From: Escherichia phage EcNP1
Direction: 5' to 3' (one strand)
Sequence record: NC_054910.1
Length of the DNA stretch: 64,000 nucleotides
The notes below the pieces were generated by a model that was given only the letters and a program-made list of their open reading frames with translations, made no database searches and was not told the origin of the DNA. Within the stretch, counting starts at the first letter, position 1, and every line of letters starts with the position of its first letter. Below, piece after piece: positions 33,964-38,738 of the stretch. Both the position numbers and the translations under genes were made by a program.

Positions 33964-33967
33964 CAAT

Positions 33968-33996
33968 GGGGACCTTTCGGTCCCCATATTTTTATT
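33968..33996 (+). terminator. Intrinsic terminator after gene 54
   Basis: Hairpin GGGGACC-TTTC-GGTCCCC then ATATTTTTATTT. Confidence 0.8.
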
Positions 33997-34282
33997 TACG
34001 GAATGAAATAAAAGCAGCAACTGAAGCAACTAAACTGTCTTCAATATAAACTTCAATTTTTACCGGAGCTTCTGACTCAAATTTACCTGTTACTACACCT
34101 TGGAAAATGCTTTCAGTCTGTTCTGGCTTTGAAAAATTTTCAGAAGGAAAAATTCCGAACTTTTTATCTGTTCCAAAAATTTTAATAAATTCATCGTAAA
34201 CTGCTTCATTAAAAGCGTTATCAGCAGGAATAACGCCTTCAACTACAAGTTCTTGACCTAAAAAGCGCAAAGAAGATTTCAT
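33992..34282 (-). CDS. alt.-3: Hypothetical protein (T4 alt.-3 position)
   Basis: 96-aa ORF immediately downstream of the alt genes on the minus strand. Confidence 0.65.
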   Translation of the reverse strand: MKSSLRFLGQELVVEGVIPADNAFNEAVYDEFIKIFGTDKKFGIFPSENFSKPEQTESIFQGVVTGKFESEAPVKIEVYIEDSLVASVAAFISFRK

Positions 34283-34342
34283 TTTATGTTCCTCATGTTA
34301 TGTCAGTAAGATTATTATAACACAACACGAGGGACTTGTAAA

Positions 34343-36400
34343 CTACATTTTGAACTTTTTAGACATTCCGTTGATATTAACCAAAGAAGCCAAGATTTGA
34401 GAAACTTCGTTTTCCTCTTCTTTTGATTCTTCTACAAGGAATTGGTTAAATCCAGTCATTGGACGAACTTCACCAGTTTCCATTAGATGGTCGCCATCAT
34501 ATACCGATTCTTCTAATTGTTCAGAAGGAGGAACGATTGTGCCTTCGATTAGATACTTGTTATAAGCAGTTTCTTTCATCATGTACGTACTCACTTTATT
34601 AATCTTCAGCAAAATTCCACGTGGTAAAATAACTTCAGCTTCTGATGGAAATCCTGATAAATGTCCTGGAACGATAACTTTGATTCGCTCAGCTCCTTTA
34701 ATTACCATACCCACGCTAGTTTCAGCATCTTCATTGGCATACGCAGAATGACTACCCATATGCATTAAATCTTCAGCGTCAACAGAACCTTCTCCTTCAC
34801 CAGAAAATACTGCACCGGAATCATCTAGAGCCATATAGTTTTTACCATACTCACCGAAGATATTTGGTTTAAGTGATGTGGATACGAAGTTCTTGAAATA
34901 GAACATTTTATTTTCAATATTATGACGTAAAGTTTTAAAGGTAACTTCTTGGCCACGGTAAAGCGTAGTTCCTGGAGGAAGAACTGATCCTTTGGCAAAA
35001 GCAGAATCCATCGTCTCGATGTGTTTAATAGCTCGTTCCATATATTCTTCACGAGTAGAATCCGGTTTACCTAAAAGGAACGAGTTCATTTCAACATATG
35101 AATCTGCACAATAATCTTCAATTACATCAGACTCAGCCTGAGTTAATCCTTTTGGAGTTACTTCAGTACTTGCATATTCATACGCTTGAGAAGCAGACTC
35201 ATTAATCAATTTATAAACGCCATTCATGACAAATTGAATAATAGCTACCTTTTCATCTGGCGTGGCTTTAGAACCTTTAACTAAATCATTGACGATTTTC
35301 TTAATAACATCAAAGCTATTAGAAATATTAATGTCAGCAAGATCGCTTAAAATTTTATCAGTTTTATAATCAAAAAATTCTTTATTCTTTAAATATTCTT
35401 GAGAACCTTGATATGTTATATCGCTCTGTAATTTAATAGATGGATCACGTAAACGCGCATGGGCCAATGCAATATGATTTCGGAAGCTTTCTAGTTCATA
35501 ATCACTAGATTTAAAACGAGAAGCACTCCTCATACTACCGATAGCTCCTTTGCTGAAGTTTGAACCAACCTGAATAACGCCGGAGTTCATTGGTCCTTCT
35601 GCTTTATATACTGGAACTTTAGATTCAAACTCTTGATATTTCTTAGCAGCGAAGCTATCACCCTGAAGTGAAGCATCGACAGTAGAGTATTGAGCTTGTG
35701 CTGCTAATCGACGACTAATTTTAGTTTTCTGAATAACAGCTTGATCCGTGCGCTTATCATTTTCTAAGGCAATAGAAGCAGCAACAGCAACAGCTTTAGG
35801 AACAGCATTGCCTGTTTTAACATCTACATAAACATCACCAACCTTTGATTCAACCTTTGTGAATAACTCAGTTGAAATAGGAGGTACACCTGGAATGTCT
35901 TCTAAATTGGCATTTTTACGGTAAACCATAATATATGCATACTTTTTATCATAATCCCAGATTTCCTTTAAAAGAACATATCGACCTGCTCCTTTAGTAC
36001 GTACTAAACGGTCGGCAATAACTTGCATTTGACGAGCAGCTCCATTTGTTTTGCTCTTTAGTACGCGGAATAAGCATGCATCAATTTTATACTGTTTCAT
36101 TGTTTGAAGAGCAGTATCAAAAACCGCATTAATGACACCAATTGGATTTCCACCTAAGTTTTTAAGTTTAACTAATGATAGCTTTTCATTGACACCTATC
36201 ATTACGATATGCATCATTTTATCGCCTGGCTTAACGTTTTTATTTGTATCACCGCCAGAGGTGTATGTACAAAATCTAAATCCAGGAAGCACGCTTTCTT
36301 CACCTGCTTGAATAGCAAAAATTTGAGGTATTTTATGCTTCGGGTTTAAGTTAACAACCGGCGCCGAAGCGCCGTCAAATAATTCTGTAATAAGTTCCAT
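34343..36400 (-). CDS. Alt-family mono-ADP-ribosyltransferase paralog (full length)
   Basis: 685-aa ORF, SD AAGGA upstream, starts 3 nt after the alt stop. N-terminus MELITELFD and first ~230 aa similar to Alt; C-terminal region keeps TLYRGQ, FVSTSL and EAEVILPRG; central ~200 aa unrelated to Alt. Confidence 0.85.
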   Translation of the reverse strand: MELITELFDGASAPVVNLNPKHKIPQIFAIQAGEESVLPGFRFCTYTSGGDTNKNVKPGDKMMHIVMIGVNEKLSLVKLKNLGGNPIGVINAVFDTALQTMKQYKIDACLFRVLKSKTNGAARQMQVIADRLVRTKGAGRYVLLKEIWDYDKKYAYIMVYRKNANLEDIPGVPPISTELFTKVESKVGDVYVDVKTGNAVPKAVAVAASIALENDKRTDQAVIQKTKISRRLAAQAQYSTVDASLQGDSFAAKKYQEFESKVPVYKAEGPMNSGVIQVGSNFSKGAIGSMRSASRFKSSDYELESFRNHIALAHARLRDPSIKLQSDITYQGSQEYLKNKEFFDYKTDKILSDLADINISNSFDVIKKIVNDLVKGSKATPDEKVAIIQFVMNGVYKLINESASQAYEYASTEVTPKGLTQAESDVIEDYCADSYVEMNSFLLGKPDSTREEYMERAIKHIETMDSAFAKGSVLPPGTTLYRGQEVTFKTLRHNIENKMFYFKNFVSTSLKPNIFGEYGKNYMALDDSGAVFSGEGEGSVDAEDLMHMGSHSAYANEDAETSVGMVIKGAERIKVIVPGHLSGFPSEAEVILPRGILLKINKVSTYMMKETAYNKYLIEGTIVPPSEQLEESVYDGDHLMETGEVRPMTGFNQFLVEESKEEENEVSQILASLVNINGMSKKFKM

Positions 36401-36403
36401 GAT

Positions 36404-38497
36404 TTATCCTTGAACGAACTTGTAAGGCATGTTTGTAATATCTATGCAAGACGCAATAATTCCAAGAGATGATTCTACTTTCTGTTTAACGTTTGATGAA
36501 ACAAATGATGCAAAGTCAACTCTGTCTTCTATTTCAATATCACCTGTCATTGCAACTACTTCACCAGTTTCCATTAAATGGTCTCCATCATAAATTACTG
36601 ATTCGGTGAGTTCTTCTGTAGTCATAACTTCAGCTTGAATGAGTTTTGTATTATTAGATGTTGTTCCGTCATTATTAGAAGCATCAGTTATTTTATTAAC
36701 TTTGACCATCAATCCGCGCGGTAGAATAACTTCAGCTTCTGTTGCTATTCCGAGACTTCCTGGATATACAACATTAACTTTATGAGCTCCATCAATTGCC
36801 CATCCTATTTGAACTTTAACGTATTCAGGATTTTCTTTATACGCTCTTATTTCGTTTGGATTAATAGTTATTCCTTCTTCATTTTTATCAACTGTCAATT
36901 CATTACGAGCTTCTGGTTCTAAAAGACCAATACCAGCATGTGTAATTCCAAAACGTCCAAAAATGATAGGAGTTAAAGAAGTAGATACAAAATTTCTGAA
37001 ATAGAACACTTTATTTTTAACTAGTGCTTCGTATATAGGAGCAGTCATACTTTGAGCACGATAAACTGTAATGCCTTCTGGTATACGGTCACCATTTTCA
37101 AAAGCTGAATCTAAGTTATTTATAGCAGATTCAATTTCTTTTTCACTCATTACATCATATCGTTCTGGATTGTAGCGGCCTAAAAGAAGATTATTGATGT
37201 CAGTATATCCTGATCCACAATACTCTCTAATGCCGCGCTTTTGCGATGGAGTATATTTAGAACCATCGCGTGCAATGGTAATATCAATCATTGGACCTGC
37301 ACCAATTCCAGAAAAACTATAAATCATTCGTTTGAGGAATTTAGTTTTTGCTGCGTTCCAGGAATTTTTAGTTATTTCTTCCCAGACTTCATCTGGCTGT
37401 CCTTTACGGGTTTTATTATGTTTATCAAGCCATTTATCTTTGTATTCTTCAAAGAATTTATTAACAGCTGCTGCGTATTTCTCTAAACATTTTATTGAAG
37501 TAGTTGGTTCATTTTTAATCGCATTAAGAATTACATCTTTAATTTTTTCAGAAACTTCATTAACCTCACTTTTTGAAAAGAATTTATAGTCATAGTGAAG
37601 TTCATCTGCAGTTCCTTCAGCAATAATTTTTGCTGCCTTAGTTTTAGAAGCTAATGAATTAATTCCAAGCTTCATTTCTTCTGCTTCTGGAATTAAAGGA
37701 GCAGTAGCAGGTTTATTGAAATTAGCTGCAGTAGATTCATACTTCTGGAATAATTCGCTTTCAAATCTAGAAGATTCTAATGATTGACTTTGCGCAATTG
37801 CTCTACGGGAAATTTTAACTTTAACGATTACAGCTTGGTCAGAGCGTTTATCATTTTCTTGCGCAATAGATGCTGCAATTGCCTCATTTTTAGTTACTTG
37901 AGCACCAGTATCTTTATTGATATAAACATCGCCGACTTTTGATTCAACTTTAGTAAAGAGCTCGGTACTAATTTCCGGAACTCCCGGAATGTCTTCTAGT
38001 GATACATTTTTACGATGTATAAGAATATATGCATACTTTTTATCATAATCCCAGAGTTCCTTAAGAAGGACGTATCTGCCACCTGAACGACTACGGATAA
38101 GTCTATCAGCAATAACTTGAATTTGTCGAGCTTGACCAGCAGTTTTAGACTTAAGAATACGGAGCATACAGGCATCAATTTTATACTGACGCATCGTCTG
38201 CATTGCAACAGTAAAAACTGAATTGATATAATTAATTGGGCTTGGACCGAGACCTTTTAATTTAGCAATTGAACCTTTAGCAGTTAATGTAAAAGGAACA
38301 ATATGCATCATTTTATCGCCCATTTTTAAATCGCGATTAGTATCACCTCCAGATGTATAGGTACATAAACGAAAGCCTGGTTGTTCAATTGCGTCATCGA
38401 CATGAACTGAAAAAATTTGCGGTATTTTCTTCTTTGGATTTAAGTTTGTAATCGGAAGAGTAGTATCTTCGTCAAATAATTCTGTAATGAGTTCCAT
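36404..38497 (-). CDS. alt: Alt ADP-ribosyltransferase (packaged, injected)
   Basis: 697 aa from the second ATG (MELITELFDEDTTLPITNL..., SD GAGG 5 nt upstream); matches T4 Alt as recalled; motifs TVYRAQ, FVSTSL, EAEVILPRG. Confidence 0.93.
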   Translation of the reverse strand: MELITELFDEDTTLPITNLNPKKKIPQIFSVHVDDAIEQPGFRLCTYTSGGDTNRDLKMGDKMMHIVPFTLTAKGSIAKLKGLGPSPINYINSVFTVAMQTMRQYKIDACMLRILKSKTAGQARQIQVIADRLIRSRSGGRYVLLKELWDYDKKYAYILIHRKNVSLEDIPGVPEISTELFTKVESKVGDVYINKDTGAQVTKNEAIAASIAQENDKRSDQAVIVKVKISRRAIAQSQSLESSRFESELFQKYESTAANFNKPATAPLIPEAEEMKLGINSLASKTKAAKIIAEGTADELHYDYKFFSKSEVNEVSEKIKDVILNAIKNEPTTSIKCLEKYAAAVNKFFEEYKDKWLDKHNKTRKGQPDEVWEEITKNSWNAAKTKFLKRMIYSFSGIGAGPMIDITIARDGSKYTPSQKRGIREYCGSGYTDINNLLLGRYNPERYDVMSEKEIESAINNLDSAFENGDRIPEGITVYRAQSMTAPIYEALVKNKVFYFRNFVSTSLTPIIFGRFGITHAGIGLLEPEARNELTVDKNEEGITINPNEIRAYKENPEYVKVQIGWAIDGAHKVNVVYPGSLGIATEAEVILPRGLMVKVNKITDASNNDGTTSNNTKLIQAEVMTTEELTESVIYDGDHLMETGEVVAMTGDIEIEDRVDFASFVSSNVKQKVESSLGIIASCIDITNMPYKFVQG

Positions 38498-38520
38498 CAT
38501 ATCCTCTCTAGTGTTTATTC

Positions 38521-38528
38521 TATTTATA
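38521..38528 (-). promoter_or_regulatory. Late promoter core TATAAATA (alt)
   Basis: Reverse-complement TATAAATA 24 nt upstream of alt ATG (38497); Alt is a late, head-packaged protein in T4. Confidence 0.6.
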
Positions 38529-38549
38529 AAATTAAAGGCCCGAAGGCCT

Positions 38550-38738
38550 TTAATAATCTAGTGGTAAGAGAGTACGGTATATTTCAAACTTCGGACCTTT
38601 TTCATAGGCATCAAATGTTTCTGTAAATTTATTATAAGCATATGCATCTACAAATTCAAGAACGATTTGTGATACAGAAGTAGAAACATCTCCACCTTCT
38701 TTTTGAGCAACGACAATTGTTTCTAAGTAAGCTTTCAT
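38550..38738 (-). CDS. Small acidic hypothetical protein
   Basis: 62-aa ORF; its start overlaps the gene 30 stop; a hairpin overlaps its own stop. Confidence 0.55.
   Translation of the reverse strand: MKAYLETIVVAQKEGGDVSTSVSQIVLEFVDAYAYNKFTETFDAYEKGPKFEIYRTLLPLDY

Follow-up and report, generated by a model that had tools for sequence, protein, structure and literature searches.

The alt locus of Escherichia phage EcNP1 (NC_054910.1) was examined in a stretch of 64,000 nucleotides (nt), referred to here as the window, and holds two tandem genes of the Alt family of ADP-ribosyltransferases (ARTs), alt and alt2. The window and the Tequatrovirus Escherichia phage vB_EcoM_Nami (MZ502380.1) are 100% identical over the 4.9 kb tested. 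The order on the minus strand is gene 30 (DNA ligase), alt.1 (Pfam Phage_blade), alt, alt2 and alt.-3 (DUF5498), with gene 54 convergent. The placing of alt2 between gene 30/alt.1 and alt.-3/gene 54, together with a late promoter, is that of a locus for Alt proteins. The spacer between alt and alt2 is 3 nt, and MELITELFD opens both proteins. An initial annotation of this DNA had described two full-length Alt-family open reading frames (ORFs) in tandem, sharing the motifs TVYRAQ/TLYRGQ, FVSTSL, EAEVILPRG and DGDHLMETGEV; ORF calls, BLASTP and Pfam agree with this, and all of the motifs are there. Coordinates are collected in Table 1.

Alt and Alt2 align over their full length in BLASTP (42% identity, E = 1e-161), and the likeness is unevenly spread. 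Identity is 67% over amino acids (aa) 7-232, 12% over aa 238-415, 35% in the ART domain (416-628) and 46% in the C-terminal tail. When Alt2-type and Alt-type sub-alignments were compared with hhalign, the N-terminal domains (E = 5e-98) and the ART domains (E = 9e-53) matched strongly, and no homology signal was obtained for the centres (probability 0.6%, E = 0.09). The earlier statement that the central ~200 aa are unrelated holds at the detection level of these tools. The insert between the STS and ExE motifs has also diverged. In the DNA, alt and alt2 have synonymous differences at saturation or close to it throughout, the N-terminal domain included (proportion of synonymous differences, pS, 0.54-0.76; nt identity 63-72%), so that the duplication is old, as had been proposed. 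Recent gene conversion was rejected on these pS values as an explanation for the likeness of the N-termini; the shared N-terminus is maintained by selection on the protein. The longest exact stretch common to the two genes is 32 nt, at codons ~147-157.

The ART domain of Alt2 is matched by Pfam PF03496 (ADPrib_exo_Tox) at 73.1 bits (E = 2.5e-20) and that of Alt at 129 bits (E = 1.9e-37), the curated cut-off being 23.4 bits. Absence of the catalytic Arg, Ser and Glu from the second copy was looked for; all are kept and in order (R-STS-ExE). In an alignment of 22 family sequences, R482, S507, S509, E587 and E589 (Alt2 numbering) are invariant and T508 is nearly so. The ExE motif is consistent with arginine specificity. 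The AlphaFold2 model of Alt2 is of moderate confidence (mean predicted local distance difference test, pLDDT, 74; predicted template modelling score, pTM, 0.60). It shows an alpha/beta part (~12-215), an all-helical part (~230-470), the ART core (~480-622) and a low-confidence tail from residue 629. Foldseek comparison with the PDB places the ART core among Vis, C3, CDTa, iota Ia and VIP2 (E = 2e-7 to 1e-4, probability 1.0); the best match of the model is Vis (4xzk, E = 2.3e-7), with C3bot among the others. For the ~415 N-terminal residues no informative structural relative was found. A PDB sequence search with Alt2 gave no matches, and no Alt-family structure is present in the PDB. The match of the N-terminal domain to PF26846 is taken from the precomputed Pfam listing for Alt2 orthologs; the family was not reported by the local Pfam scan of the window proteins.

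In T4 Alt the prohead protease gp21 cuts at two sites, after ITE-6 and after LTE-619, with loss of a 63-residue C-terminal propeptide (PMC5694885; review PMC9026906). Alt2 retains ITE-6 and, in register, LEE-631 followed by S-V-Y-D-G-D, and both E6 and the glutamate of the C-terminal site are invariant across the 22 members of the family. Alt2 would thus be expected to be processed at both sites. Mature masses calculated from the gp21 sites are 68.2 kDa for T4 Alt, which equals the published value, and a predicted 69.1 kDa for Alt2. As the sites are kept in Alt2, the DGDHLMETGEV segment falls inside the propeptide predicted to be removed, and it is in this region, exactly from residue 629, that confidence in the Alt2 model drops.

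That the second copy is intact has been borne out: the frame is open throughout and under strong purifying selection. Among Tequatrovirus orthologs of alt2 (synonymous divergence, dS, 0.1-0.26), the ratio of nonsynonymous to synonymous divergence (dN/dS) is 0.02-0.05 overall, with 0.00-0.03 in the N-terminal domain, 0.02-0.10 in the centre and 0.00-0.05 in the ART domain. Comparison with a diverged metagenomic copy (74% aa identity, dS ~1.4) gives 0.14. The ortholog DNA was drawn from phage records and Logan contigs; a scan of IMG/VR gave five loci only. Shigella phage sb4 (L016, PQ666542.1) was left out of the analyses. In this phage both alt genes and gp48 are broken into several short ORFs, most likely by uncorrected sequencing frameshifts and not by biology.

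The simplest reading of the expression signals would be late co-transcription of alt and alt2. A T4-type late promoter box stands upstream of alt; the terminator scan reported none between alt and alt2, and no late promoter of alt2's own was found. A further TATAAATA inside alt (37117-37124), considered as a promoter for alt2, does not recur in RB7 or in other alt genes and was treated as chance. The Shine-Dalgarno (SD) sequence of alt2 is embedded in the end of alt, and translational coupling from alt to alt2 is plausible. The hairpin that follows alt.1 is likely to be a terminator that would shield alt from upstream early transcription; it was read from the sequence and not flagged by the terminator scan. 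A conserved terminator upstream of alt was reported by Nolan et al. in 2006 (PMC1524935). Two adjacent in-frame ATG codons (ATGATGGAA) are present at the start of alt. Use of the extra ATG at 38500 would give a product of 698 aa; the start implied by the annotation, and by the numbering under which ITE-6 was published, is the second ATG.

In T4 the downstream position is annotated, as the initial annotation had stated, with alt.-1 (61 aa) and alt.-2 (67 aa), noted as a duplication of the first part of alt. Local BLASTN was used here in place of global MAFFT, which misplaced the T4 remnant across a large gap. Over the first ~370 nt of alt2 the remnant is 94% identical in nt; it lacks 1 nt there, which shifts the frame. 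After a ~1.7-kb deletion between short repeats (Table 1) it rejoins 20 nt before the alt2 stop and continues from there into alt.-3 at 95% nt identity. The PHROG families of T4 alt.-1 and alt.-2 match Alt2 at aa 1-56 (E = 2e-40) and 62-117 (E = 3e-38), far better than they match Alt. On this evidence alt.-1/alt.-2 are the decayed ortholog of alt2, and the window carries the intact, ancestor-like gene. The second gene of T6 is described as 'apparent insertion in alt.-2; also similar to alt'; its label in RB7 is alt.-2. The polarity in both the T4 note and the T6 note is backwards.

Approximately 400 phage records, T2, T6 and RB7 included, encode Alt2 at ≥90% identity, and T2 and T6 have the intact alt/alt2 pair. 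The T4-type deletion junction is found in 91 records (T4 and 90 others). Most of Tequatrovirus has alt2 intact; T4, which lost the gene, is the exception. NCBI, RefSeq and UniRef contain the exact Alt2 protein, named either 'NAD(+)--arginine ADP-ribosyltransferase' or 'Alt-like RNA polymerase ADP-ribosyltransferase'; the 90% cluster to which it belongs numbers 772 proteins. Paralogs of alt, including a full-length one in phage 44RR, had already been listed by Nolan et al. (PMC1524935). The novelty at first attached to an intact second gene was therefore overstated: it is the known, annotated state of most T-even phages. Whether the gene had been characterized in relatives has a divided answer, as it is annotated by homology but no experimental characterization was found in the literature.

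Alt2 resembles T4 Alt, an NAD:arginine ADP-ribosyltransferase that is packaged in the head and injected, in length class, in a four-part layout (N-propeptide, N-terminal domain, helical centre plus ART, C-propeptide), in the N-terminal domain (67% identity), in the R-STS-ExE motifs, in the positions of the gp21 sites, and in locus and late promoter context. It differs in the centre (11-12% identity; hhalign probability 0.6%), in the ART domain (34-35%), which has another STS-ExE insert, and in the ExE motif itself, which is EAE in Alt2 and EME in T4 Alt. To our knowledge, ADP-ribosylation of the RNA polymerase alpha subunit ('alteration') is established for T4 Alt only, and because the centre of Alt2 is unrelated it is uncertain that Alt2 has the same target. 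The ExE glutamates of T4 Alt (682 aa; L003, 5455-7503, minus strand) are E574 and E576, and the published LTE-619 fits the same numbering. The catalytically dead T4 Alt mutant was published as E577A (PMC11404850), probably through an offset of +1 in the numbering of that construct. T4 ModA and ModB belong to the same R-S-E clade of ARTs and their ExE glutamates align with those of Alt2, but they are proteins of ~200 aa with no N-terminal delivery domain, centre or propeptides. Their genes are early and lie at another locus, and the proteins are not packaged (PMC5512222). The toxins C3, VIP2, iota-toxin Ia, CDTa and Vis have the catalytic fold and the R-STS-ExE order in common with Alt2 (template modelling score to the target 0.54-0.64), but identity is 14-21%, delivery is by secretion or as a binary toxin rather than from a phage head, and the ~415 N-terminal residues of Alt2 are additional to what the toxins have.

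We think it probable, with appreciable room for doubt over the chain as a whole, that Alt2 is a second late-made, packaged, gp21-processed and injected arginine-specific ADP-ribosyltransferase whose targets are unlike those of Alt. Expression, packaging, cleavage, injection, activity and the difference in targets are each steps that we infer. The single TATAAATA promoter ahead of alt would drive late transcription of both genes, and alt2 would be translated from the SD embedded in the end of alt. The protein would then reach the prohead core by way of the N-terminal domain and/or the terminal propeptides that it has in common with Alt, gp21 would trim it after Glu6 and Glu631 to a mature protein of ~69 kDa, and it would enter the host with the injected DNA. 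Inside the host it would act as an arginine-specific mono-ADP-ribosyltransferase, using R482, S507-T-S509 and E587-x-E589. Given the unrelated helical centre and the diverged STS-ExE loop region, Alt2 most likely modifies a set of host proteins different from that of Alt. Several points weigh on the other side. The literature yielded no virion proteomics, activity assay or mutant for the second copy. The gene is dispensable in some lineages, being deleted in T4 and the 90 other records, and ECML-134, PST and SCS4 have one chimeric gene only (see below), so two separate effectors are not obligatory. That the central module determines the choice of target is an assumption, for T4 Alt too.

The foremost alternative is that Alt2 is a redundant back-up, packaged and active on essentially the key targets of Alt (e.g. 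the RNA polymerase alpha subunit) and serving dosage or robustness rather than a new specificity. Alt and Alt2 do share a delivery domain, the ExE arginine-specific signature and an operon, the second copy has been lost in the T4 lineage, and the natural single-gene chimeras retain the Alt2 effector only, so that a phage seems able to be viable with just one effector, whichever it is. We nevertheless regard redundancy as unlikely: the centres are non-homologous, the ART domains are 35% identical with a diverged STS-ExE insert, and simple redundancy would hardly account for purifying selection on both copies in ~400 genomes when their synonymous divergence is saturated. More doubtful again is that Alt2 is not injected, and either acts late in the cell that makes it or is mainly a structural part of the head core, its enzymatic role being secondary. 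The literature search found no packaging observation for the second copy, and published accounts of T4 Alt treat it as a core protein and report altered DNA packaging when it is lost (PMC3012670; PMC11404850). However, the N-terminal domain is the most constrained part of Alt2 (dN/dS 0.00-0.03) and both gp21 sites are conserved, which fits a head-packaged, processed protein, and the catalytic residues are invariant. That the second ORF is a decaying, non-functional duplicate that has merely not yet acquired stop codons is extremely improbable, even though T4 shows that the copy can decay, and is effectively excluded by the low dN/dS (0.02-0.05 over 685 codons in several lineages, and 0.14 at dS ~1.4), the intact frame in ~400 records and the invariant catalytic and cleavage residues.

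Table 1. Features of the alt locus in the window, and chimeric alt genes at other loci (positions in the window unless another locus is named)
Feature	Position	Strand	Remarks
alt (first copy)	36404..38497	-	697 aa; N-terminal delivery domain identical to T4 Alt; 'Nami type' centre and ART cassette
Two adjacent in-frame ATG at alt start	38495..38500	-	
alt2	34343..36400	-	685 aa plus stop; ortholog of the ancestor of T4 alt.-1/alt.-2
Alt2 aa 1-6, MELITE	36383..36400	-	predicted N-terminal propeptide; ends at gp21 site ITE-6
Alt2 aa 7-232, conserved N-terminal alpha/beta domain	35705..36382	-	PF26846 Tevenvirinae_ADPRT; presumed head-core targeting/delivery module
Alt2 aa 233-415, all-helical central module	35156..35704	-	no detectable homology to the Alt centre
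Alt2 aa 416-631, ART domain (C3/VIP2-like)	34508..35155	-	ends at predicted gp21 site LEE-631
Alt2 catalytic residues	R482 34955-34957; S507-T508-S509 34874-34882; E587-A-E589 34634-34642	-	
Alt2 aa 632-685, acidic C-terminal tail	34346..34507	-	predicted propeptide; 54 aa, pI 4.6; conserved YDGDHLMETGEV segment; low model confidence
alt2 stretch missing in T4 (~1.7 kb)	34363..36062	-	short direct repeat CTAAA(G/A)AG..CAAAA at 36049-36063 and 34348-34362
GC-rich hairpin AAGGCC-TTCG-GGCCTT with T-rich tail	38535..38550	-	directly 3' of the alt.1 stop; likely terminator
T4-type late promoter box TATAAATA	38521..38528	-	~20 nt upstream of the alt start, followed by SD GAGAGGA
SD AAGGA for alt2	36407..36411	-	within the last codons of alt: ...CAAGGATAAATCATG
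alt.-3 (DUF5498)	33992..34282	-	
Promoter-like site	34314..34342	-	TTTACA-17-TATAAT with TG; strong sigma-70-like
Bidirectional terminator hairpin	33966..33987	.	closes the alt-alt2-alt.-3 unit and convergent gene 54
Chimeric alt, ECML-134	L014, 2501-4561		
Chimeric alt, Yersinia phage PST	L015, 2501-4561		
Chimeric alt, metagenome contigs	L011-L013		

The first-position gene had initially been matched with T4 Alt. At the two ends of the protein, aa 1-240 and the final ~60 aa, this is correct (95-98% nt identity); it is not so for the centre (32% aa identity) or the ART domain (65%). Over codons ~241-620 (~36638..37777), synonymous sites are saturated relative to T4 alt and aa identity is 16-73%. 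The first-position alt of the window is a mosaic with respect to T4 alt, carrying a different, deeply diverged effector allele. The 'Nami type' of this cassette is found in ~317 phage records and the T4 type in ~174.

Some six records have a single chimeric alt gene, and three distinct phages were identified among them (ECML-134, SCS4 and Yersinia phage PST). The chimeras join the N-terminus of alt to the remainder of alt2, with at least four different crossover points, and that of ECML-134 falls within the 32-nt exact alt/alt2 repeat. At L012, L014 and L015 the chimera is the sole alt-family gene of the locus. Such genes are the expected product of unequal homologous recombination between tandem paralogs. 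Three of them come from short-read contigs, and assembly artefact was considered; it is ruled out by the complete genomes of the cultured phages ECML-134, SCS4 and PST, which show the same.

The tandem alt paralogs of 44RR, RB49 and Dhakavirus QL01 are like the window pair in locus, 3-nt spacing and architecture. QL01 (L021, 864-7124) has three of them, of 694, 681 and 707 aa, with 3-nt spacers. Their N-terminal domains are 67-89% identical to each other and 41-46% identical to any Tequatrovirus copy. The remaining parts pair between the genera: QL01_a, the first copy, with Nami Alt (centre 64%, ART 95% identity) and QL01_c, the third, with Alt2 (centre 45%, ART 57%). In the ART segment of QL01_a and Nami Alt, pS is 0.31-0.49, the baseline given by flanking genes being 0.62-0.84, and nt identity is 81-92% where the flanking genes have ~61-65%. 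A pS below the flanking baseline indicates a probable exchange of cassettes between the genera after they split.

These comparisons, from one Dhakavirus and a handful of loci, suggest a delivery module to which swappable effector cassettes may be joined. Copy number in the other Tevenvirinae ranges from 1 to 3, and their N-terminal domains group by genome and not by cassette type. A wider proposal, which we put forward only tentatively and hold to be somewhat less likely than its negation, is that the Tevenvirinae alt locus is an array of polymorphic effectors, in which a genome-specific delivery module serves interchangeable cassettes (helical centre plus ART) engaged in an arms race over host targets. 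The delivery module, comprising the N-terminal domain and the terminal propeptides, would co-evolve with the phage's own head. Tequatrovirus would have at least three deeply diverged cassette types (T4-Alt, Nami-Alt and Alt2). A genome would have between one and three copies, unequal crossing-over in the N-terminal domain would reshuffle the cassettes, and they would be mobile between genera. If this were so, the arms race would concern host (possibly defence) proteins disabled at injection, and T4 would have a reduced version of the array.

As a genome feature alt2 is ordinary. Its remaining interest is that of a probable injected enzyme of T2 and T6, experimentally unstudied as far as the literature search goes, in a modular-looking locus. 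Nearly all of our knowledge of phage-injected ADP-ribosylation comes from T4, an atypical lineage in which this gene is deleted. Most T-even phages, T2 and T6 included, probably inject two different ADP-ribosyltransferases, and for the first-position gene, too, two or more deeply different effector alleles exist. Should the second enzyme have targets of its own, something is missing from the present picture of host take-over (or counter-defence) during the first seconds of infection.

Downstream of alt2 the window has a strong sigma-70-like promoter-like site and then alt.-3 (Table 1). T4 mutants with a C-terminal extension of Alt.-3 escape the CmdTAC defence system (PMC11618068).

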